Shown: positions 1,062 to 26,629 of the stretch, piece after piece
How the letters are laid out: each line of letters starts with the position of its first letter
Numbering within the stretch: position 1 is the first letter of the stretch
Made by a program: the position numbers and the translations under genes
Origin: Flavobacteriales bacterium
GTDB taxonomy: Bacteria > Bacteroidota > Bacteroidia > NS11-12g > UBA9320
Assembly (NCBI GenBank): GCA_020635395.1
Contig: JACJZV010000002.1
Location: forward strand, 29,914 to 93,913
DNA: 64,000 nt
Direction of reading: 5' to 3'
The notes under the pieces: generated by a model
Told to the model about the DNA's origin: nothing
Database searches by the model: none
Seen by the model: the letters and a program-made list of their open reading frames with translations, nothing else

Positions 1062-4000
1062 TTGAGAAATCTATGGTTCATAGTATTGATGGCTTGCAGT
1101 CAAATGATTTTGGCTCAAAACGATTATTACATGACCAATGGAAAAGTCTCTGACTGCAAAGGCAATTTTTTTGACAGCGAAAAAGGAACCATTTCCGGAA
1201 ATTATGATCACAACGAAAACTACATTTTCACTATATGTGTGCCGGGTGCACAGAGCATAACACTCACTTTTTCGGCATTTTGCACCGAAGATTACGAAGA
1301 TTACATGATTATTTTTGACGGTAAAGATACCTTTGCCTCAAAACTGAGTGGCAAAATTAGTGGCAGCAACAACCCAGGTAGTTTTACCAGCAGTGATTCT
1401 TGCTTAACCATTTATTTTCATAGTGATGTGAGTGTGCCGTGCAGCGGTTGGGAGGCCAGTTGGTCAACCAAAGTTATACCCATTTTACCACCCAAATTCA
1501 TTGCCCTATCACCGGTTTCTTGCGATGATAACGTATTAAGAATCAAACTTGACCAAAAATGGAATTGTGATTCGCTTTCGGCAGGCAACTTCACAATTAC
1601 CGGAATTTTGAATCCAAGTATTACCAATTTAACCCCAATAAATTGCGATGCCAACAACGAAACTGATAGTTTTTTACTTTCGTTAAATCCTAAACTTGAC
1701 CGAAGCGGAAGCTACCAAATTGATTTTGATGCAGTAAAATATGACCGATGCGATTCGGCATGGCAACTACATTCCGATACAACTTTCAACATTACCAACT
1801 GCCCCATTTATGTAAATCTAATAGCCGACCCCGATACGGTTTGTCAAGGCACTTGCACCGCAATAACTGCCGAAGTAACCGGGGGTGATTCCACAAAATA
1901 CAATTTTGCATGGTCAACCGGTATAAACGGAACTTTTGGTCCGCACACCTATTGCCCCAGCACAAGCGGTTGGGTATATCTCACGGTTTCCGATGGCAGC
2001 TCCGTGCCAGGTACCGATTCCATTTGGATAGAAGTGGTTAGCCCACCCGTAGCACAGGCCGACACCACTGTTTGCGAATCGGCCTCAGCTTTTTTATTGA
2101 CCGCAAGCCCTGTTGCTGGAAATTGGCTTGGAAAAGGTATTACAAACACCAATTCGGGACGATATGACCCCCAAAAAGCGGGAGCCGGAATAGATACCTG
2201 TGTGTATCAATTTGCGGGCTGCACCGATACCGTTTTGGTAAATATCACGGCATTTGATGCCGGATTTGCCAATGCTTCATGCCCGGGTGCAAGCCCATTT
2301 ATGGTAACAGGCTTCAGTCCGGCGGGAGGTACGTGGAGTGGCCCGAACATTACGTCAAACGGTATTTTTGACCCCGTTGACACGGGAACCTACACCGTAA
2401 CCTATACTTGGAATGGATGTACTGATACTAAAACGATTAATGTTTATCCTGTAAATGTGCAGACGTATGACACTGTTTGTCAATCGCAAGATTCGTTAAA
2501 ATTAAATTTCTCTCCAGTGGGAGGATATTGGAACGGCTTGGGTTTCCTCGATTTTCAGTCGGGATGGTTTTTGCCGCCACGAGCCGGAGGAGGCAATAAA
2601 CGATTGATTTATGATGCCAATGGTTGCAAAGACACCGCTTATGTTTACGTAAAACCCATTAACGCCCGAGGCAATCAAATAGCCTGCCCCGATGCTCCAC
2701 CATTTAATATTACACAAGGCTTGCCCACCGGAGGCTATTGGACAGGCGTTGGTTTGACCGACACCATAAAAGGCACTTATGATGCCTCGTTTATTTACGG
2801 ACTTAATAAAACCTTTTTTAACGATACGCTTTACTACCACATCAATGGTTGCGTGGCTCGAAAAATTGTTTATGTCAGACAAACCGTTGTGCCTTTCGAC
2901 ACACTAAAATTTTGCATAGAGGCTCCAAATCTTTTTCTCGACTTCAACTCCACCAAACGTAGCCCGGGCGGCGGTGTTTGGAGTGGGAATGGTGTTTTTG
3001 GCACGTATTTTTTTGGCCCCGACACAGCCGGAAGGGGGGGTAGCAAAATATATTACGATGCCAACGGATGCCGAGATAGCCTCATCATGTTCGTACACCC
3101 TCAGTCAATAATTCAAAACGACACTTCTATATGCGAAACCGACAATTCGATAACACTATATGCCAAAGAAAAAGGGGGAAGTTGGGCTGGAAAAGGTACA
3201 ACAAAAGCCGGAGTTTTCGACCCTAAAATTGCCAAAACTGGGGTTCATACCATTCGTTATACATCAAAAAATGGCTGTTTAGATTCTAGTAAAATAACCG
3301 TTTTGCCCCGACCTACAGTAAAAATCACAGGATTCAACCCTATTTACTGTTTTAAAGATTCAAACTTTATCATAAAAACCAATGCTGTGGGAGGAGTTTT
3401 TAGTGGCACCACCTTTGGCGATAGCCTGTTTAACCCTCACTTTTCAGGAACCGGAAATCATAAAATTAAATATCAATTTGGCACTGCCACGTGCTATTCG
3501 GCAGATAGTGTGGTAGTAAGGGTATTGGATACATTAAAACACAGTTTCACTTTTGATGACGATTCGCTTTGTTTTGGCGAGATAGCCACTTTAACCGCCG
3601 GAGGTTCAAGAGGTTCTGGCAAACCAATCAACTATACGTGGTCGAATTCTTCATCGACAGACAGAACATTATTTACACGACCAACATCATCTGGTTGGGT
3701 TTCCGTAACCATTTCTGACGGTTGCTCTGACAACGTGCGAGACAGTGTTTTCATTTACGTTTTCCCGAAAATTGAAGTAACTGCCGCCACAAGTGACACC
3801 CAGTGTTTCGGCACCGTTGGTTGGGTAGAAGTAAATCCTATTTTAAGCGATCCCTACAAACTAACTTGGCACACCGCCCCGCCACAAAATACCAATAGAA
3901 TTAACGCTGCCGTGGCTCTAAACTACGCATTTACAGTGCAAAATCTTTATACAAACTGTCGGTTAGACAGCAGCATTTACATCCCCTCCTATCCTCGCAT

Positions 4001-7298: not shown

Positions 7299-7982
7299 TT
7301 GCTTTCTAACCCATACCTTTGGCACTGTCTGAAAAAACACATTTACATACTCAGCGGTTTGGGAGCCGACCATCGAGCCTTTCAACGTATTGACTTTAAA
7401 GAATTTAATCATACGTTCATTCAATGGGTTGCTCCAAATAGAGATGAAACTTTATCCCAATATGCCCAACGCATCGCCAAACAACTAACCGAAGAAAATC
7501 CAATAATTATCGGACTTTCTTTTGGTGGAATGGTGGCTGTTGAAATAGCCAAACCTATCCCCACAGCTCAACTGATATTGATTTCGTCGGCCAAAACCAA
7601 GCATGAAATTCCGAAGTTCTATCGGCTTTTGGGTAAACTAAAATTGCATAAACTTTTACCTGTAACACTTCTTAAGAAATCAAACCCAATGACCAATTGG
7701 TTTTTTGGGGTAAAAACCATACACGACAAACAAATTTTGGCAGACATTCTGTACGACACCAACCCCATCTTTCTAAAATGGGCGATGAATGCCGTGATGA
7801 TTTGGCAAAACGAAATCATTCCACCCAACGTTGTTCATATTCATGGCTCGCACGACAAAATTTTGCCTATTCGTTGCGTAAATGCCACCGAAATTATTCC
7901 TGGAGGAGGTCATTTGATGGTATTGAGTAATCATAAAAATTTAAACAAAGTCAATACTTCCATGCTAAATTTGTTTTCATGA
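7299..7982 (+). CDS. alpha/beta hydrolase fold protein
   Basis: Nucleophile elbow GLSFGG. HG...GGGH-type motifs. TTG start is uncertain. Confidence 0.5.
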   Translation: MLSNPYLWHCLKKHIYILSGLGADHRAFQRIDFKEFNHTFIQWVAPNRDETLSQYAQRIAKQLTEENPIIIGLSFGGMVAVEIAKPIPTAQLILISSAKTKHEIPKFYRLLGKLKLHKLLPVTLLKKSNPMTNWFFGVKTIHDKQILADILYDTNPIFLKWAMNAVMIWQNEIIPPNVVHIHGSHDKILPIRCVNATEIIPGGGHLMVLSNHKNLNKVNTSMLNLFS

Positions 7983-8767
7983 ATGAAGAGCTGATTTTAA
8001 AATGTATTGAAACCGAAAAGTTGCAATATGAAAAAAAAAGGGCTCGAAATATTTTTTTTAACCTCTCTTACTATAGCATTGTTAACCTCGTAATAGCCAT
8101 TTATTGTTGCACCCCACCCTTACGATATTCTTTTTTCATTGGTGTAATTGTTCTGGTTAATTACGTGCTCTTTATGAAAAATTATGTCAAGAACAGAAGA
8201 TTTGTCATCTATCCTTACTCAATAAACAATGCCCAATTAGAGAGGGTAATTATTTGTTTTTCAGAATTAGTTGGAAGCCAATTGACCGTAAAATACCAAG
8301 AAAATTACCATTCCACCATTTTTTCGGATGGAATAATTTTATACAAATGCGTGGCAATCAATCATCAAAATCAAACCATGATTAATATAAACTATGCCAT
8401 TGAATATGAGTTCGGCCTTTCTTTCGGAAAGTTAAAAAAATACCACTCCACGTTAAACGACCTTCTAATTGCCGTATGGAAAGGAGAAAATATTGAAGAA
8501 AAGACTAACGAAATTCTTGCAACAAGAGCAAATAATTTTTGGGCGAAATCCGAATTTTCTGGATTCCGTCTTTTACAAAAGTTGGTTTTTTATCCGCTCC
8601 TTTGCATCTTTATTATCGGGCCAATTGTAATGGCCGTAGTATATCAAAAACTTATTTTCCTGCTCATTTCATTGTTTTTCATCTTTATGTTTTGGCCGTA
8701 TATAAAAACAGAAATTTACGTAATAAGAAAGAAATGGAAAATGAATCGCGAAAAAAGATTGAAGTAA
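7979..8767 (+). CDS. hypothetical multi-pass membrane protein
   Basis: Several hydrophobic helices. No recognisable motif. Confidence 0.3.
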   Translation: MNEELILKCIETEKLQYEKKRARNIFFNLSYYSIVNLVIAIYCCTPPLRYSFFIGVIVLVNYVLFMKNYVKNRRFVIYPYSINNAQLERVIICFSELVGSQLTVKYQENYHSTIFSDGIILYKCVAINHQNQTMININYAIEYEFGLSFGKLKKYHSTLNDLLIAVWKGENIEEKTNEILATRANNFWAKSEFSGFRLLQKLVFYPLLCIFIIGPIVMAVVYQKLIFLLISLFFIFMFWPYIKTEIYVIRKKWKMNREKRLK

Positions 8768-8813
8768 AAATTTCCAAATCCAATTACATTTGAGGCAAAT
8801 ATTATTTTATAGA

Positions 8814-9254
8814 ATGAAAAAACTAATAATACTCCTAACTGCTTTATTTGTAGGGTTTGTGGCCAATGCCCAAAAAGTAAAAATCAAAAACGAAATTGCC
8901 ACGGTTGACGGCGTGGAATACGTAAAAGTAAAAAAAGACCCTGTAACAGCCTCTGTAAAAAACGTAGCAACATTGAGCGATTCTACCCTAATCTACCTCA
9001 AAACCCAAAGCTATAAAGACCCCAACAGAGTTGATGCAAAAGGAGTTCCTATGTCGGTATATTATTTAGAAGTTATCAATGCCAACACAGGAGAAATTTA
9101 TTTTGAAAGTGGTGTAGGAATTAAAAATACCATCAAAGCTTTTTACCTCGAAAATGTCATTACCGCCAATGGTATTAATGAGGCGAACATGCAAAAGTTG
9201 GCCATTAAATACGGCTTTGATTATTCGCGTAGGAGAGACGAACTAAGCAGATAA
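8814..9254 (+). CDS. hypothetical secreted protein
   Basis: Signal peptide MKKLIILLTALFVGFVANAQ at an internal Met. The ORF track starts at 8790. Confidence 0.4.
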   Translation: MKKLIILLTALFVGFVANAQKVKIKNEIATVDGVEYVKVKKDPVTASVKNVATLSDSTLIYLKTQSYKDPNRVDAKGVPMSVYYLEVINANTGEIYFESGVGIKNTIKAFYLENVITANGINEANMQKLAIKYGFDYSRRRDELSR

Positions 9255-9261
9255 TACTCTA

Positions 9262-10983
9262 TCAATGAATGGTTAGATTCAATTTTTCTTTGAGCAATTT
9301 TAACGAAGGATTTTTCTTGGCCATTTCTTCAAACTTTTCTTGAGCAGTGTAAGCTTTGGTGCCTTCTGCTTTTTTCTTTACCTCCTCAATTTCCAATTGT
9401 AGGTTGTCGTTCTGTAATTCTCGTTTTAGAAATTGAACAAAATCGGTTCGCACCTCTTCCAACTGCACTCTGTGTTGTTTTATTAGTTTTATTTCAATCG
9501 TATTCCCAACAATAGTTGGTTTTACCAACTTAAACATGGACTGAATGATACCGCTTTCTGAAGCCTCAGCAAATTTGGTTATACAATCATCCAAAGCATC
9601 CTGACTAACGGTATTGTTTTGCTGATAAACACCCGATTCTTCAGCAACAACCTCCTTTTTGGGTTCGCTCACCACTTCGATATTGCTGCTCAGCAAATCA
9701 TCCAAACTGCCTATTTTGGCAACCTTTTCAGAATCTTGCTGCACTTTTTTTATAGCCTCCGCTTTTTTTTCAAATTCGTTGCCGGAGGGTTTTTCAACAT
9801 TCTGAGTTGATGCTGAAGTTGGAACAACAACCTTACCTGCAACGGAAGAAACAGCCGATGCCACAGGTTTTTCGGTATTATTTTGCTCGAAGTTTAAATC
9901 ATTTTTTTTTTCGCCCAGTTTTTCAAGACTCGGCAAATAGCACATTTTGATGAGGGCAAGTTCGATATGCAGCCGCTGGTTTCGACTCTGTTTGTAGTTT
10001 AAATCAAATTGATTGGCAATGTTTATGGCATTTACCAAAAAACCCTGACTCATATTTTTTGCCGAATCAATATATTTTTGGTGCACATGTGGCGGAACAT
10101 CGAGCAAAACGAGTGTTTCGCTGGTTCTACCCACCATCAAATCTCTGAAATGATTTGCCAGCCCATTTAGAAATATTTGGCCATCAAAACCATGATTTAA
10201 AATTTCGTCGAAGGCCAATAAGGCAGTAGAAATATCTTGATTTTGAAAGGCATCGGTTATTTTAAAATAATAGTCGTAGTCCAACACGTTTAAGTGCTTC
10301 ACCACATCGGCATATCGCAGCTTTTTATCACCCGATATGCTAATCATTTGGTCGAAGATAGAAAGAGCATCCCGCAAGGCACCGTCGGCCTTTTGACCAA
10401 TAATGTGCAATGCCTCTTCTTCCATTTCAATGCCCTCGGCCTGACCAATTTTTTTCAAGTGGTTTACAATATCGCCCACGGTTATGCGGCTGAACGTAAA
10501 AACCTGACAACGAGACAAAATGGTTGGCAAAATTTTGTGCCGCTCGGTGGTGGCCAAAATAAAAATGGCATAGTGCGGAGGTTCTTCCAGCGTTTTTAGA
10601 AACGCATTGAAAGCGGCTGCCGAAAGCATGTGTACCTCGTCTATGATATACACTTTGTACTTTCCAATCTGGGGCGGAATTCGCACCTGCTCGTTCAACA
10701 TTCTGATGTCTTCCACGCTGTTGTTCGAAGCAGCATCCAGTTCAAAAATGTTGTACGAAAAATCATAAGATTCGTCGGTTATGCTTTCTTTGTTTATTTC
10801 TTTGGCCAAAATACGGGCACAAGTGGTTTTGCCTACCCCGCGAGGACCGTTGAATAAAAAAGCCTGAGCCAGTTGGTTATTTTTAATTTCGTTTATCAGC
10901 GTTTTGGTAACGTGCTCCTGCCCCACCACCGTATCAAAGGTGGTTGGCCGATATTTACGTGCCGATACAACAAAATTTTCCAT
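9262..10983 (-). CDS. dnaX: DNA polymerase III subunits gamma/tau
   Basis: YRPTTFDTVVGQEHV...NGPRGVGKTTCARILAKEIN (Walker A). VYIIDEVHML. SRCQ sensor motif. Confidence 0.9.
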   Translation of the reverse strand: MENFVVSARKYRPTTFDTVVGQEHVTKTLINEIKNNQLAQAFLFNGPRGVGKTTCARILAKEINKESITDESYDFSYNIFELDAASNNSVEDIRMLNEQVRIPPQIGKYKVYIIDEVHMLSAAAFNAFLKTLEEPPHYAIFILATTERHKILPTILSRCQVFTFSRITVGDIVNHLKKIGQAEGIEMEEEALHIIGQKADGALRDALSIFDQMISISGDKKLRYADVVKHLNVLDYDYYFKITDAFQNQDISTALLAFDEILNHGFDGQIFLNGLANHFRDLMVGRTSETLVLLDVPPHVHQKYIDSAKNMSQGFLVNAINIANQFDLNYKQSRNQRLHIELALIKMCYLPSLEKLGEKKNDLNFEQNNTEKPVASAVSSVAGKVVVPTSASTQNVEKPSGNEFEKKAEAIKKVQQDSEKVAKIGSLDDLLSSNIEVVSEPKKEVVAEESGVYQQNNTVSQDALDDCITKFAEASESGIIQSMFKLVKPTIVGNTIEIKLIKQHRVQLEEVRTDFVQFLKRELQNDNLQLEIEEVKKKAEGTKAYTAQEKFEEMAKKNPSLKLLKEKLNLTIH

Positions 10984-11101: not shown

Positions 11102-11803
11102 CTACCCCAAAACTCCTGTTTGCCAAAGCACCAAGCCAACGAGCAAACCTACGTTTAAGAGCAGCACCCACCACACAAAATTAGTATTGGTATTTGATTT
11201 AAAGTATTGTGTAAAATGGCCGTCAACTTTGGCATACAAATTATCCCGAGCCGAATACACATCGCCCACATCGAGGTCTTTAACACTATCGGCCACCACG
11301 CCCACCACCGGAATTCTGTCGATAACCATTTCAACCAATTTCTTAACAATGCCTGGCAAATTCTCAAATCGCTCTTTTATCAATGCCAAAAAATCAAATG
11401 CATCATTATCCACCTCTGGATCGCTTACTTTTTTAATAACCGCCTCACAAGCGGTTTCGAGTTCCCCCCGAAAACTACCGTACACATTACTTAGGGCATT
11501 GTTAATGGCAAATTTATACGCTCTGTATCCCGCATAAATGGTCAACCCTATGCCAACTAACGCCATTGCCCACAGCCACACTCCTGCCATAGAGCCACCA
11601 ATCACTTTTACTACTCCCCAAATAAAAAGGCCAATGTTTAGAACACTAAAAAGCAATACTACCTTTATGATTTTACCAATTCCCTTTAATCCTGCCTCGC
11701 GAATGAATTGCCATGCATTTGCGTATTTTTTTTGAAGGTATGATTCTTCCATTTTTTTAATTTGTTCAATATTAGAAAAATATAATTTATATCCACGAAC
11801 CAA
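11102..11803 (-). CDS. hypothetical membrane protein
   Basis: Multiple TM helices. No catalytic motif. Confidence 0.35.
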   Translation of the reverse strand: MVRGYKLYFSNIEQIKKMEESYLQKKYANAWQFIREAGLKGIGKIIKVVLLFSVLNIGLFIWGVVKVIGGSMAGVWLWAMALVGIGLTIYAGYRAYKFAINNALSNVYGSFRGELETACEAVIKKVSDPEVDNDAFDFLALIKERFENLPGIVKKLVEMVIDRIPVVGVVADSVKDLDVGDVYSARDNLYAKVDGHFTQYFKSNTNTNFVWWVLLLNVGLLVGLVLWQTGVLG

Positions 11804-11824: not shown

Positions 11825-14800
11825 TCAAAACAAATATCTAGCCTGCACCCTGCCAATATGAATTATAGGATTGTTGAGACTTCTACGGCCATCGTAGTTA
11901 ATTAAAATTTGAATGCTGTTCGAAAAACGGCGTTCTATCTGCAAGCCCCATTTTAGGTTTTTTCCATTTTTTAATCCGGCCAAAAGTTCGTACGCCACGG
12001 GTGAATTGTCATTGCCCAAATAATTGATGTTGACCAAACCAAAACTGGTCCGCACAATTCCCTGGTTTACCAAATTATACCTTAGTTCGGTAGTGAAGTC
12101 ATGATTATAAGTGGCCTCTCCACCATAACGCCTTTTGTTGTGAGCTTCGAAATATTGATAGTAAATCTCTGCTCTTAGTTTGGCTTGCAGCTGATACCCC
12201 AACTTGGGTTTGAACGCCTGCAAGGTATAATCGAACGCTCGATTGGCTAAAAACTGAGATGTATAGCTTTTAAGCCCTGTTGTGGCCTCCAACGACAGTT
12301 CGTAATTTCTTTTTATGTTGTATCGAATTTTGAGTTTGTTTTCAATCGAATTTCGGCTGTCAACTCCGTTTATCAAAAGAGTTTTGTTTTGGGTGTTAAA
12401 CCATTGATAATCCATACCAAATACCGGGCTGGACTGATTAAATGAAAACACGGAACGAATGGATGAATTGGATGTCAGAAGAGATGTGTCGGCCACATTT
12501 TGCACCAATGGATTAAAAAAATCGCTTCCATTGTTGTCGGTTACTTTTTTCTGCACCTTCAGCGAACTTGTATTGCTGAATCTATTAACCATTTTTAGCC
12601 ATTTTTTATCGGTTTTTCGATAAACTAAAATTGGAGAAACCCGTACGTTTTGATTGAACTCACTACTGTATGATTTTATAAAACCCTGAACAGGCAAAAA
12701 CTGCCGAATAAAATTTGCTCGTCCTGCATCATAGCCCGAGGCCAATTCAAACTCAGTCAAACTTTGCACCCCATTGCTGTCGTAGTCATTCCAAATATAA
12801 TTTCCGTTTCCGTCGCCCACTTCCAAATAGCTATACTCCCGTCGTTGCTCCTGCCCGGTTCCCAACTGATAGTATGCATTTGTAGTAATCAACTTTTTCA
12901 ATAGATTGAACCTTCCCTCCAACCGACCTTGCAGCGTATTTTCCGGTTTTAAATTGCCGGTATCATTCAAAAAGAACAATTGCCGATAGGTGGTATTCAA
13001 ATCAAACTGGGCGTTGTTTCCGGCATTATACCCCAATCCGAAATTCACATCTCTACCTTCCGTATTTTCTTTAAAAGCTCCATCATTTCCAACAAAATCA
13101 ACCCTTCTACCCACATTCAAGTTGTACACCATTTTGCCCGAATCGCCATTAAACAGGCTCATTTTGCTGTGCTCAAACCTAAAACTGGAAGCCAAAATAG
13201 AGTCTGCGTTTAGGGCAAATTTGCTGCTTTCTATCTGATGGCTAAGTTTGGTAGAAACCCATTTACCCCGTTTCAAAACCTCCGCTTGATAGCGTTCAAA
13301 ATCATTTTTTAGTTTAGAACTACCCGAAGGTAAATTGCTTTTTACATTTTCCACAACACCACTAAGCTCAAATTTTGGATATCTGATTAAAGAAGAATAT
13401 TGCTGCGAAAAACCTCCAAATTGATTGCCTCTGTTGTACCAAATTTGGTTTATGTTTAGAAATACTTTTTGGCCTTTACTAATTCCAAAAGAAGCCAAGC
13501 CTATTTTTTCTCCATAAAACTGCTGACCCTCAGTTGGGTTTGTTAGTGTTTTGTTCCACGTTCGGTCAAATTCTACATTTCGGTATCGCTCAATGTATCT
13601 AAAATTTTTGTCGGTTTGCTCAAAAGATACGGTGCTATTAAGTTTCCATGGGATTGCACTGTCTTTTGTAAGCAATTGCTCGCTTTTCCAAAATGTTTTC
13701 AATGCATAACCCAAGTCATTTTCGTGGTCGAGCCGACTAAACGTATTTATTTGATTATTGCTTTGAGCCAACTCCACGCCCAGTTTTGATTTAGAATTCA
13801 GTTGATAATCTGCACCAACCGTGAGCATTTGCAGCCGCTTTGGCGGAATCAAAATTTGAACCGGATCATAGTCTCCAATTGCATTACCAACCCACTCAAA
13901 TACTTTTCCATTGGTGGTAGATATTTTTTGCCGATAGCTACCATTGCCGTTCCCAACATAACTAAAAGTAACACGATACAGGATACCGGTGTCTGCGGGG
14001 TTTGCATAAACGAAAATAGAATCACCCAAACTGTCTTTTCGGATATAAAGTATTTGGTTAAAATTTCGCTCCAATGTCTCTTCAAACCGAGGAATATAAA
14101 CATATTGAGCATCGCCGGCATCGGCAATAAGTTGCCGAACAGATGAGCCATTAATTTCGTAATCCAAATCTTGCTGAAACGGCTGATTTTTGTTGTCTTG
14201 CTCACTAAAATAATTGGTTCTTAGTGAAATTTTGCCCTGCGAATAGTTGCCTCCCAACCTAAAAACAGAGCGGCCATAGTTTCTATCGGAATATTGAAAT
14301 TCGACAATAATCCGACTGTATTGAGTTATTAATTTTCGAGGCATAAAGGTCAACTCGCCTGTGTTGTAATTAACGGTATAATCATTTTGCTCTCCACGTG
14401 TCAATAGTTCGCCATCCAAATACACTTGCTCTGTGCCGCTGATAATGATGATAAATGTTTCGCCGTTAGCACCTTTGAGTCTATAAGGCCCTTGGTTTCC
14501 TTCAATTCCGGCAAAAATATTTCTCGAAAACCGACCACGACTTACAGCTCCTTCTCCGCTTATTTCGTATTGCCCCTTTTTGGTTGTGTCAAAATAATTG
14601 AATTGCAGGCCTCTCGATTTTTTGTTGTATTTCATAAAATACGATGATTTGGGCGTAACCATCGGAAAATCACCGGCAACCAAACCAACACTGTCTTCCA
14701 AAAATTGAAATTGAATAAAAACCCTGTCAAAATCCTGAATTTGTTGGGTGTTTCCTTCGGGCTGTATGGGATTATTATCGTCAGAAATGGCGGCCAATAC

Positions 14801-15307
14801 ATTCACTTTATTTTGCAACTGCCCATTTAGCCGTAGGTTGAGGTTGCTGTTTACCACCACATCCTGCCTATTTCCGAAACCAATGCCACGCGAAATATTG
14901 CCGATGGTTTGAATTTTATCGGTGTTTTGCTCTAAATACTTTTCGTTTTGCGGAACATAGCCAAAGGGGTCATCTTCAAACCAATAACTGATGATATTTG
15001 GATTCTTTTTTTGATAAACTTGATTGAAATTGAATTGCAAAACGCGGTAGCTTATACTCACGGAGTCTTTCGGAAAAGTATCCGACCGCCAAATCAAGGC
15101 AGATTGTAGAGGCAGCACTTCATACCTTTTTTTTTCGACTCCCTCAATCTCAAACGACTCTAAATCAATAGATAACGTGTCAAAAAAAACAGTATCATGG
15201 TTAATAAAAATACGTTTTTGGCGAAGCGATGAATTTTCTTGAGACCAAACACACACTGTTTGGAAAACAAAAATAACCACAAATAGAAACCGCTTAAACG
15301 ACACCAT
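11825..15307 (-). CDS. large (1160 aa) putative outer-membrane protein of unknown function
   Basis: Signal peptide. Beta-strand-rich Asn/Tyr/Gly composition. C-terminal ...ARYLF with a terminal aromatic residue typical of OM beta-barrels. No TonB box. Confidence 0.45.
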   Translation of the reverse strand: MVSFKRFLFVVIFVFQTVCVWSQENSSLRQKRIFINHDTVFFDTLSIDLESFEIEGVEKKRYEVLPLQSALIWRSDTFPKDSVSISYRVLQFNFNQVYQKKNPNIISYWFEDDPFGYVPQNEKYLEQNTDKIQTIGNISRGIGFGNRQDVVVNSNLNLRLNGQLQNKVNVLAAISDDNNPIQPEGNTQQIQDFDRVFIQFQFLEDSVGLVAGDFPMVTPKSSYFMKYNKKSRGLQFNYFDTTKKGQYEISGEGAVSRGRFSRNIFAGIEGNQGPYRLKGANGETFIIIISGTEQVYLDGELLTRGEQNDYTVNYNTGELTFMPRKLITQYSRIIVEFQYSDRNYGRSVFRLGGNYSQGKISLRTNYFSEQDNKNQPFQQDLDYEINGSSVRQLIADAGDAQYVYIPRFEETLERNFNQILYIRKDSLGDSIFVYANPADTGILYRVTFSYVGNGNGSYRQKISTTNGKVFEWVGNAIGDYDPVQILIPPKRLQMLTVGADYQLNSKSKLGVELAQSNNQINTFSRLDHENDLGYALKTFWKSEQLLTKDSAIPWKLNSTVSFEQTDKNFRYIERYRNVEFDRTWNKTLTNPTEGQQFYGEKIGLASFGISKGQKVFLNINQIWYNRGNQFGGFSQQYSSLIRYPKFELSGVVENVKSNLPSGSSKLKNDFERYQAEVLKRGKWVSTKLSHQIESSKFALNADSILASSFRFEHSKMSLFNGDSGKMVYNLNVGRRVDFVGNDGAFKENTEGRDVNFGLGYNAGNNAQFDLNTTYRQLFFLNDTGNLKPENTLQGRLEGRFNLLKKLITTNAYYQLGTGQEQRREYSYLEVGDGNGNYIWNDYDSNGVQSLTEFELASGYDAGRANFIRQFLPVQGFIKSYSSEFNQNVRVSPILVYRKTDKKWLKMVNRFSNTSSLKVQKKVTDNNGSDFFNPLVQNVADTSLLTSNSSIRSVFSFNQSSPVFGMDYQWFNTQNKTLLINGVDSRNSIENKLKIRYNIKRNYELSLEATTGLKSYTSQFLANRAFDYTLQAFKPKLGYQLQAKLRAEIYYQYFEAHNKRRYGGEATYNHDFTTELRYNLVNQGIVRTSFGLVNINYLGNDNSPVAYELLAGLKNGKNLKWGLQIERRFSNSIQILINYDGRRSLNNPIIHIGRVQARYLF

Positions 15308-23549: not shown

Positions 23550-25457
23550 TTACTTTACCTCTTCGAAGTCAACGTCTTCAACGTTTTCGGTTGAGCCATC
23601 GTTGGTGGCATTTTCCGCTCCACCGTTTGCGGCATCGCCGCCGGTTTGTTGCTGTGCGTTATACAAATCTTGTGAAGCTGCCTCCCAGGCTTTATTTAAT
23701 GTTTCCATCAATCCGTCCAAGCTGTCACCGTCTTTTGCTTCCACGGCCTTTTTCAATGCGTCTTTTGCATCTTCAATAGCCTTGCGTTTGTCTTCCGGAA
23801 TTTTATCTCCGTATTCTTTGATTTGCTTTTCGGTGGTAAACACTAACGTATCGGCCTGATTGATTTTCTCAATCGATTCTTTCGCCTTTTTATCAGCTTC
23901 GGCATTGGCTTCCGCCTCTTTTTTCATTCTTTCGATTTCGGCATCGCTCAAACCGCTTGAGGCCTCAATTCGTATTTTTTGTTCTTTGCCTGTTCCTTGG
24001 TCTTTTGCACTTACGTTTAAAATACCGTTGGCATCAATGTCAAAAGTAACCTCAATTTTAGGCACTCCTCTTGGAGCCGGAGGCAAATCGCTCAAATGAA
24101 AACGACCAATGGTTTTATTGTCTTTAGCCATAGATCGCTCGCCTTGCAACACATGTATTTCTACCGAAGGTTGATTGTCGGAAGCGGTAGAAAACACTTC
24201 CGATTTTTTTGTAGGAATGGTCGTGTTGGACTCAATTAGGCGAGTAAAAACGCCTCCCATAGTCTCAATACCTAATGAAAGTGGTGTTACATCTAATAAC
24301 AATACATCTTTTACCTCACCTGTCAAAACTCCGCCTTGAATGGCTGCTCCAATGGCCACCACCTCATCCGGATTAACTCCTTTTGAAGGTTTTTTGCCAA
24401 AGAATTTTTCTACTTCATCTTGTATGCGAGGAATACGCGTTGAACCTCCTACCAAAATCACTTCATCAATGTCGCTGTTGCTCAATCCGGCATCTTTCAT
24501 AGCTTGTCGGCAGGGCTCCAAACTTCTTTTTATCAAATCATCGGCAAGTTGTTCAAACTTTGCTCTCGACAATTTGCGAACCAAGTGTTTTGGCACACCA
24601 TCCACCGGCATAATGTATGGGAGATTAATCTCTGTTTCGGTGCTGCTCGAAAGTTCAATTTTTGCTTTTTCGGCAGCTTCTTTCAACCGTTGCAATGCCA
24701 TTGGGTCTTTTCTAAGGTCGATATTTTCATCGCTCAAAAACTCTGCTGCCAACCAGTCGATAATAACTTGGTCGAAATCATCTCCACCCAAATGAGTATC
24801 GCCGTTGGTTGATTTTACTTCAAACACGCCATCGCCAAGTTCAAGAATAGAAATATCGAATGTGCCACCGCCCAAGTCAAAAACGGCAATGGTCATGTCT
24901 TTATCTCTTTTATCAAGCCCGTAGGCCAATGCAGCCGCTGTAGGCTCGTTTACGATTCTTTCAACTTTCAATCCAGCAATTTCGCCAGCTTCTTTTGTAG
25001 CTTGTCGTTGTGCATCGTTAAAATATGCCGGAACGGTAATAACCGCACGACTAACCTCTGTACCCAAATAATCCTCCGCCGTTTTTTTCATTTTTTGTAA
25101 AACGATGGCCGAAATTTCTTGAGGTGTGTATTTCCTATCTCCAATTTCTACTCGAGGAGTGTCATTGTCGCCTTTCACCACTTTATAAGAAACATGCGAT
25201 GCTTCGGTAGTTACTTCGCTGTATCGCATACCCATAAACCGTTTGATAGACATAACGGTGTTTTGCGGATTAGTGATGGCTTGTCTTTTTGCGGGGTCTC
25301 CCACTTTGCGTTCGCCATTGCCATTATCCAAAAAACCAACGATAGAAGGAGTTGTTCTGCGTCCTTCGCTGTTTGGAATAACAACCGGCTCGTTGCCTTC
25401 CATAACGGCAACACATGAATTTGTTGTTCCTAAATCTATACCAATTACTTTGCTCAT
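23550..25457 (-). CDS. dnaK: molecular chaperone DnaK (Hsp70)
   Basis: [33 protein letters not shown] and the C-terminal EEVK tail. Confidence 0.95.
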
Positions 25458-25582
25458 AATATAGCCTCTTTTTTTTAATTGGGGCTAAGGCAATTGAAGT
25501 GCCAAGCATTATTTTTTTTTTGAAATGACCAAAATTGACCGATTTAGAAGTTCAAATTTGGCAAAAAGGTGACAAATAGTCA

Positions 25583-26629
25583 CTAAGGGGTGACAAAGTT
25601 AAGCTTTTCGGTACGCGGAGAGTTGGCCAAAGAAGAATGTGTTGCCCCAGTCAGTTCGATATGGTCGTATGCTTTTATGTGAACTGAAGAGAAAACACCC
25701 AATCCATTGGAAATATTGGTAAACTCCGGTTTCTTCTGCACAATACCTATGCTGGGTTTATTTACTTGAACATACGTATAAATGTCTTCGCCGGAGGCAT
25801 AAAAATACATTCCCACATCTATTGCCTGACGCTCGTAGCCTGGTTTTTCGGGCAAAACCGTTGCCAAGAAATCGTAAAACACATAGCTCTTTTGCGGGTA
25901 GATTTGCTGTTCGTATCCACGAAGTCGAATGGTTTCTTTTCCTTTAAAAATAGTCCAACTCACGCTGTCCACCACAGCTTTATTGGGTTCACCAGCGGGG
26001 TATTCTTTATACCTAAATCGAAGTTCGCAATCATACATTTTAGCTTGCGATGCCTCCCGATAGTTGATAAACAAAAAGCGAGAAGTATCATCTTCAATGC
26101 TCAGTTTTGTGGTTCTATCGCTAACCGGAGAGAAAACTTCAGTAAGTCCAACTGTATTTGCCTTTGACTCGTAGGTTTTACCGCTTTTATTATTGGTAAT
26201 GACAAGTTTATAGTTGTATAATGCCGCAAAACTGGATGCTTTTATCGGAAAATTGGTTCGGTAAAGTACATTGGGCGAGTTGGCAAAAAGACCGGAATCT
26301 TTTGGAAGGCCAATTGTATCACCAATCACCTTTTCGAGGGTTATAACATTCGTTTCCGCTCCATCTTTAAACTCCACCATTTTTACCGTTAAATCTTCAA
26401 ACTGGAGGCTATCAGAAACACCGGCATAGCTCAAAGCATTGCCTTGTTCGTTGAGGTAAACCTTATTAATTCGTATGTAATTGTATGTTGCTGATGGATT
26501 AAGCAGCCCATACACCACCGGAATTTCTTTCCAATCGGCCGTTACATCCAATGTATTGTTGCATCCACCGAAAAAAGCCGCCAACAATAAGGCTACCCAA
26601 CCAATCCTATTATTTATTTGTATGTGCAT
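25583..26629 (-). CDS. hypothetical lipoprotein (DUF4249-like)
   Basis: Signal and lipobox ...AAFFGGCNN. Beta-rich. The family call is tentative. Confidence 0.35.
   Translation of the reverse strand: MHIQINNRIGWVALLLAAFFGGCNNTLDVTADWKEIPVVYGLLNPSATYNYIRINKVYLNEQGNALSYAGVSDSLQFEDLTVKMVEFKDGAETNVITLEKVIGDTIGLPKDSGLFANSPNVLYRTNFPIKASSFAALYNYKLVITNNKSGKTYESKANTVGLTEVFSPVSDRTTKLSIEDDTSRFLFINYREASQAKMYDCELRFRYKEYPAGEPNKAVVDSVSWTIFKGKETIRLRGYEQQIYPQKSYVFYDFLATVLPEKPGYERQAIDVGMYFYASGEDIYTYVQVNKPSIGIVQKKPEFTNISNGLGVFSSVHIKAYDHIELTGATHSSLANSPRTEKLNFVTP

Follow-up and report, generated by a model that had tools for sequence, protein, structure and literature searches.

The window analysed here, a 64,000-nucleotide stretch of a contig from a Flavobacteriales bacterium, carries on its minus strand a dnaX gene (9262..10983) in which a run of ten consecutive A (A10) lies shortly after the codons for the clamp-loader domains. 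Recognised by its open reading frame (ORF) and by profile matches, the gene encodes in its full-length frame the tau protein of 573 amino acids, 100% identical to the 'DNA polymerase III subunit gamma/tau' of a Flavobacteriales bacterium metagenome-assembled genome (MAG) at NCBI. Scores exceed the cut-offs of both the N-terminal dnaX model TIGR02397 (378.8 bits against 250, residues 6–348) and PRK05563 (409.9 bits against 400). Pfam places PF13177 (DNA_pol3_delta2) at residues 21–167, PF22608 (ATPase lid) at 172–218 and PF12169 (DNA_pol3_gamma3) at 225–355, and residues 4–272 align to residues 3–282 of crystallised E. coli gamma/tau chains (368–376 residues, e.g. 1jr3 with 373 residues). The 573-residue ORF runs through its domains in the order expected of DnaX: AAA+ module, lid, domain III and, last, the C-terminal region specific to tau. 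Clamp-loader domains I–III (residues 1–355; 9919..10983, minus strand), delimited by Pfam and the E. coli alignment, are common to tau and to a predicted gamma product, and the linker and C-terminal domain specific to tau (9265..9898, minus strand), a zero-frame continuation of 213 codons, would be absent from the latter.

On the minus strand the site reads CTG GGC GAA AAA AAA AAT GAT TTA AAC, and the A10 run (9902..9911; T10 on the template strand) falls within codons 358–361, GAA AAA AAA AAT, encoding EKKN, 3 codons past the end of domain III at residue 355. Both other frames close almost at once. In the -1 frame, which is also the frame entered after one extra A, a UGA (9899..9901, minus strand) abuts the run with 0 codons intervening, and in the +1 frame, entered with one A fewer or two A more, the sequence continues ATG ATT TAA, placing a UAA (9894..9896, minus strand) 2 codons past the run. 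A message with eleven A (A11) would encode 361 amino acids ending in EKKK, and one with nine A (A9) would encode 362 ending in EKKMI. Features of the Thermus type, an A-run of at least nine downstream of domains I–III and close stops in both non-zero frames, are present here together. The initial annotation of this stretch had drawn attention to the A10 run and its abutting -1-frame UGA, which the minus-strand reading confirms, and had set the run at the domain III boundary, in agreement with Pfam. Its estimate of the run's position, at about codon 357, has to be moved to codons 358–361. The EKKK terminus it gave to gamma stands, with a length of 361 residues in place of roughly 358, and its frame account was right as to the -1 stop and silent on the quick +1-frame stop at 9896..9894. 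It also equated the relative position of the run with that of the E. coli and Thermus sites, which is roughly so, except that the run here comes directly after domain III and would yield a minimal gamma.

Within the window the run carries little weight of its own. Lysine codons are AAA in 84% of cases, so that EKKN is often spelt as A10, and the two A10/T10 runs observed compare with 9.15 expected from dinucleotide shuffles of the window, at least two being found in 97 of 100 shuffles. On account of this AAA bias, and with two runs in 64 kb falling below the shuffles, significance drawn from the window was rejected as evidence; since the run alone is not significant there, evidence beyond chance must come from relatives. 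The under-representation of A10/T10 agrees with a genome in which slippery runs are selected against, as long A/T runs generally are in coding regions (PMC1088944), and the dnaX run is the sole homopolymer of at least ten inside a coding region of the window. The second A10 run (25512..25521, minus strand) is intergenic, situated in ggtcatttcAAAAAAAAAAtaatgcttggc; a dnaK/HSP70 gene (23550..25457, minus strand) begins some 55 nt downstream of it, so that it may belong to a promoter or leader.

Conservation of the run and its frames in Bacteroidota

The loci compared comprised 80 dnaX genes from species-representative genomes, 80 from metagenomes and 4 found by exact protein look-up. In the genome set the site was mapped in 77 sequences (76 of the 80 loci and the window itself), of which 57 have exactly A10, 10 have A9 and one has A11; in the remainder, for the most part MAGs of Bacteroidales, the run does not exceed A8 or is missing altogether. 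Metagenomic loci gave a similar picture, with A10 in 40 of 56 unique mapped loci. Pooling the non-redundant Bacteroidota loci with a run of at least A9 gave 111, with exactly A10 in 95 of them; loci L121 and L161, odd-looking in layout and cut off by contig ends, were left out. All six nearest genome relatives (L001–L006, 66–68% identity) have exactly A10 at the homologous site, and they share with most Bacteroidota dnaX genes stops close by in both shifted frames. Alignment with relatives had been put forward in the initial annotation as a check on its tau/gamma slippage reading; the retention of A10 and of close stops speaks for that reading instead of refuting it, as do the relatives of inverted layout described below.

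Across loci the run is found in each of the three codon phases and between flanks as different as GAA AAA AAA AAT, ACT AAA AAA AAA AGC, TTA AAA AAA AAA CCT and GCA AAA AAA AAA GTT, with EKKN, TKKKS, LKKKP and AKKKV as the corresponding peptides. A10 is fixed also in loci of 34–47% G+C. The AAA share of lysine codons in the compared dnaX genes ranges from 38 to 96%, and three AAA in a row would be expected in approximately 25 of 68 genome-set loci rather than in every one. In these comparisons conservation acts on the nucleotides and not on the peptide.

Past the run there is one long frame only, of about 190–290 codons, and the two others are short. At most one codon separates the run from the nearer alternative-frame stop in 85% of loci, compared with 28% of same-gene control positions, for which the median distance to the nearer out-of-frame stop is 4 codons; for the farther stop, a distance of at most 5 codons is found in 66% of loci and at 11% of control positions. 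Both non-tau frames are closed within 17 codons in 100% of the 68 genome-set loci, compared with 58% of controls. Single-ORF homologues, those with tau in frame, stop within 5 codons in the frame reached by one extra A (the +1A frame) in 88 of 92 cases, the stop being TGA in 65 of the 92. Two closed frames are what mRNAs of variable A number require, an argument made earlier for Thermus (PMC1088944, PMC5009743).

Two layouts are found among the 111 loci: tau is in frame in 92, the type to which the window belongs, and gamma is in frame in 19. All 19 of these two-ORF loci have A10, and in them the zero frame is closed at a median of 3 codons. A hidden Markov model (HMM) built from the C-terminal 130 amino acids of single-ORF homologues, the window among them, finds a match in all loci whose run is at least A9, and in the two-ORF loci it locates the tau C-terminal domain (E-values 1e-12 to 1e-29) in the +1A frame in 19 of 19 cases, never in the -1A frame; a tblastn search with the window's C-terminal 117 amino acids had missed this domain, which the HMM then found. 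One two-ORF gene belongs to the window's own clade: at 70% identity it reads GAA AAA AAA AAG CCA TCT TAG, and 13 contigs from several samples carry identical copies of it. Two-ORF loci keep A10, not A9 or A11, so that the layouts differ in flanking sequence and not in run length. Tau, which tethers polymerase and helicase, is essential, and because it can be reached in the two-ORF organisms only with one extra A, these must recode efficiently at A10. From the same A10 at the same site we infer slippage in the window as well, with gamma as the slipped product. A recoding efficiency near 50% lets the roles of the two products be swapped, dnaX having been given as an example (Atkins et al., PMC5009743).

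Public records of the two-ORF relatives carry a 'DNA polymerase III gamma/tau' of 362–372 amino acids (L081–L084, L009, L013, L014, L016, L030, L034, L053, L061 and L066). In L081–L084 the annotated gene spans 1501–2619, and an unannotated ORF of 152 amino acids (2772–3230) corresponds to the tau C-terminus in the +1A frame. Essential tau is missing from the public annotations of two-ORF genomes, and single-ORF genes would hide a second product.

Seven loci (L033, L043, L054, L064, L068, L070 and L078), mostly Bacteroidales MAGs, have no run of nine or more, with A8, A7 or none at the site, and stops in their shifted frames come later; much of Bacteroidales seems either to have lost the slippage device or never to have acquired it. 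Rare lengths with tau still in frame are A13 in L143, equal to A10 plus three so that the frame is kept, and A11 in L010, L138 and L139, where the run stands in a different codon phase. Locus L031 (CAVXOV010000009.1), labelled 'Candidatus Saccharibacteria', has a Bacteroidota-like dnaX with 47% identity over the full length and A8 at the site, and its contig may be mis-binned.

A hairpin next to the run

Immediately upstream of the run, the message can form a hairpin (9913..9934, minus strand) whose 6 bp are interrupted by a 1x1 internal loop and capped by a loop of 8 nt, with a single nucleotide left between it and the first A. The enclosing segment (9912–9941, minus strand) folds with -8.6 kcal/mol (z = -2.36), a stability reached by 4 of 200 dinucleotide shuffles, and ranks at percentile 0.013 among the 30-nt windows of the same gene. 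Of the 68 genome-set loci, 49% have a 30-mer upstream of the run that ranks in the top decile for windows of the same gene; after grouping into 42 sequence clusters, 43% do (binomial p = 3e-8). The signal is positioned: mean folding energy peaks at -5.1 kcal/mol in the window abutting the run, falls to -3.9 kcal/mol at 3 nt upstream, and is about -2.4 to -3.6 kcal/mol for windows ending at least 6 nt upstream. The single-ORF A10 loci of the metagenome set (n = 28) replicate this: their median lies at percentile 0.075, and 57% of them reach the top decile.

In homologues the stems end 0–5 nt before the run, and their sequences are unrelated between lineages, GCCGTTgatgaAACGGC in Dyadobacter, GCTTCcgcaGAAGC in Pedobacter relatives and GCTGCTTC...GAAGCAGC in locus L117. 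Covariation in one fixed hairpin alignment was dropped as a criterion, as hairpin sequence and register vary even within one order; the same-gene percentile and the positional controls take its place. Most two-ORF and A9 loci have a weak hairpin or none (median percentile about 0.4), the two-ORF loci with good hairpins being L099, L145 and L149. Its association with layout, present in single-ORF genes and absent from two-ORF genes, is only a tendency, the two-ORF loci representing few lineages. No description of a hairpin next to a long homopolymer, or of its link to the tau-in-frame layout, was found in the literature searched. These data show that the hairpin exists and where it is placed; a proposed function is considered below as part of the slippage mechanism.

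Probable routes to two DnaX products

Comparison with relatives makes it very probable that A10 is a programmed slippage site by which one gene makes two DnaX proteins. RNA polymerase would be expected to slip appreciably on the T10 template, producing mRNAs with one or more extra A, or with fewer. Full-length tau of 573 amino acids would come from transcripts copied faithfully with A10, and from any whose run has changed by three A or a multiple of three; ordinary translation of A11 mRNA would stop at the abutting UGA after 361 amino acids, and that of A9 or A12 mRNA two codons on, at the UAA, after 362. Both short products would be gamma-like, made up of clamp-loader domains I–III only and lacking the tau C-terminal region. 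The hairpin of the nascent RNA would sit at the RNA exit channel when the 9–10 bp hybrid is all rA:dT. A stem at the exit channel combined with a hybrid filled by the run is the geometry of an intrinsic terminator, and also of the hairpin-dependent slippage reported for Roseiflexus IS630 (PMC5009743). In such a position the hairpin may tune slippage, in the manner of the Roseiflexus hairpin.

Whether the message or its reading slips is a matter on which the evidence leans, with some confidence, toward RNA polymerase as the main route. The competing possibility, that gamma comes mainly from -1 ribosomal frameshifting on A_AAA_AAA, as it does at A_AAA_AAG in E. coli, appears unlikely, though several observations are compatible with it. 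In-phase X_XXY_YYZ heptamers are present in the run (A_AAA_AAA and A_AAA_AAT; the E. coli site uses AAG), the -1 frame is the one that closes first after the run, in the window as in the majority of single-ORF loci, the position of tau in the -1 frame in all 19 two-ORF loci fits as well, and both mechanisms are on record for dnaX, the choice varying with the species (PMC3711429). Yet the accessory signals are not seen. A cmscan of 9600–10200 at E-values up to 10 returned no Rfam DnaX frameshift element, just two chance matches to a plant microRNA and a Pseudomonas small RNA. No downstream stem-loop was found in the window, where the 50 nt past the run fold with -3.2 kcal/mol (z = +1.12), or as an enrichment across the 68 loci (mean z -0.2). 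A Shine-Dalgarno-like stimulator some 10 nt upstream was sought by eye only, and on that reading nothing resembling AGGAGG or GGGAG is suitably spaced in TTGAAAAACTGGGCG. A cassette of the E. coli type was rejected for want of the downstream stem-loop and the Rfam element, and because these two are absent, transcriptional slippage is favoured. Genes for tRNA-Lys were sought as a guide to ribosomal shiftiness, and the window contains no tRNA genes.

The pattern among relatives also bears on the two routes. Seven A are enough for a ribosome, yet exactly ten are kept, and in every codon phase; quick closure of the +1 frame, which -1 shifting alone does not need, accompanies that of the -1 frame; and these features favour the polymerase. 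In E. coli, moreover, A_AAA_AAA is far less shift-prone than A_AAA_AAG (PMC5009743), and an upstream hairpin adjacent to the site would be expected to attenuate a ribosomal shift (PMC6321510, PMC3639245). Should nothing be programmed at all, the run would be a lysine-rich linker written in the favoured AAA, slippage would be unwanted and the nearby stops would serve only to limit the damage. The 84% AAA among the window's lysine codons, the commonness of out-of-frame stops in AT-rich DNA (with the control median of 4 codons for the nearer stop) and the many Bacteroidales that do without the run all agree with such a view, which is nevertheless very improbable: the window is poor in long A/T runs, which are generally counter-selected in coding regions (PMC1088944), the length of ten persists across peptides, codon phases, 34–47% G+C and AAA usage down to 38%, the hairpin is conserved in its position, and two-ORF relatives cannot make tau without slippage. 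Least probable of all, at a level we would call very low, is variation or error at the DNA level, whereby the true run would have another length or the tract would be phase-variable between tau and gamma. Homopolymers are indeed prone to sequencing error and mutable in replication, relatives show both layouts, and one A13 and three A11 loci have tau in frame. Against this, A10 keeps open a tau frame of 213 codons with a recognisable tau C-terminal domain, two-ORF loci are likewise A10 and not A11 or A9, with the layouts differing in their flanks, and the two-ORF variant is identical on 13 contigs from several samples.

Several points weigh against programmed slippage by the polymerase as set out above, or against parts of it. 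A10 is an unremarkable spelling of EKKN in this AT-rich genome. The loci compared are not phylogenetically independent, and the clustering correction is crude. Many Bacteroidales are missing the run, so the production of two DnaX forms by slippage would not be universal in the phylum. The hairpin, which most two-ORF and A9 loci go without, cannot be a strict requirement for slippage, leaving its role uncertain; attenuation of ribosomal -1 frameshifting is another known effect of hairpins that adjoin a slip site on its upstream side (PMC6321510, PMC3639245), and the Roseiflexus hairpin, as reported in PMC5009743, promotes deletion, where the two-ORF layout would point to insertions. For this organism the whole case is a comparative one, and slippage itself, its mainly transcriptional nature, the ratio of tau to gamma and the role of the hairpin are expectations drawn from relatives.

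A broader proposal can be made more tentatively, and we hold it to be possible and somewhat short of an even chance. Bacteroidota dnaX genes would carry a three-part module of hairpin, exactly A10 and stops in two frames, the hairpin tuning the frequency and direction of slips, with an efficiency near 50% such that lineages have repeatedly swapped the templated product and kept A10. Why bacteria retain two DnaX forms is an open question (bioRxiv 10.1101/2022.11.10.516041). A10 and two closed frames are kept across much of a large phylum, in both layouts, and upkeep of the device on this scale argues strongly, on comparative grounds, for selection of the gamma form. The occurrence of A10 in both layouts further suggests slippage efficient enough for the layouts to interchange, and the upstream hairpin, if confirmed, would carry hairpin-assisted polymerase slippage beyond an insertion sequence, into a core gene of replication.

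The neighbours of dnaX at 11825..15307 and 11102..11803 (minus strand) and at 7979..8767 and 8790..9254 (plus strand) have no Pfam match at E <= 1e-5, nor has the ORF at 25583..26629 (minus strand). Among the ORFs near dnaX that have no Pfam match, one is of 1160 amino acids and several are of 150–350.

Comparison with known systems

In E. coli, dnaX undergoes a programmed -1 ribosomal frameshift at A_AAA_AAG, assisted by an upstream Shine-Dalgarno-like element and a downstream stem-loop. The window shares with it the gene and a truncated gamma, here a predicted product, ending at a -1-frame stop right after the A run. It differs in having no AAG, no downstream stem-loop, no Rfam match and no Shine-Dalgarno-like element visible by eye. 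The E. coli site also comes later in the gene, so that E. coli gamma (431 amino acids) retains part of domain IV, whereas gamma of the window would consist of domains I–III. Caulobacter crescentus DnaX, which ClpXP processes to a gamma form (bioRxiv 10.1101/2022.11.10.516041), resembles the predicted product in lacking the tau C-terminus, and is unlike it in arising by post-translational proteolysis with no slippery sequence involved.

The closest parallel for the hairpin is Roseiflexus IS630, where slippage on T5C5 is described as hairpin-dependent, with no slip in the hairpin's absence and a specific one-base deletion as the outcome (Penno et al. 2015, as reported in PMC5009743). A stem-loop of the nascent RNA directly 5' of the slippery motif, in terminator-like geometry, is common to that system and to the window. 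The two part company in that A10 should slip alone, that the productive event here is apparently an insertion, and that an effect of the hairpin is at present a proposal.

A dnaX of the two-ORF type was described by Antonov et al. 2013 (PMC3711429), whose Suppl. Fig. S3 aligns it with the Thermus site. Flavobacterium johnsoniae, F. psychrophilum, Cytophaga hutchinsonii and several Chlorobi (Chlorobium spp.) have A10 in that figure, and Capnocytophaga ochracea has A9 (PMC3711429). The method used there picks up split genes only, and the single-ORF form is not listed (PMC3711429). Phylum, site and the A10 length agree with those of the window, and 19 such loci were recovered in the present comparison. 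The roles of the products are exchanged: gamma is the zero-frame and tau the slipped product in the two-ORF genes, and in the window tau is in the zero frame and gamma would be slipped.

Close in layout is Thermus thermophilus dnaX, a single tau ORF with A9 transcriptional slippage and stops in both other frames, according to the summaries of Larsen et al. 2000 in PMC1088944 and PMC5009743; its A9 site has been experimentally proven (PMC3711429). As in Thermus, the window has a single-ORF tau with a long sense-strand A-run downstream of the clamp-loader domains and stops close by in both non-zero frames, and Thermus gamma comes from ordinary translation of slipped mRNAs, the route proposed here. 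It is unlike Thermus in having A10 and not A9, in belonging to another, AT-rich phylum, in the hairpin that abuts the run, and in that slippage in the window is a prediction. The window thus brings the Thermus layout into a phylum where the inverted layout had been described, and represents a further member of a kind of dnaX gene that is already known.

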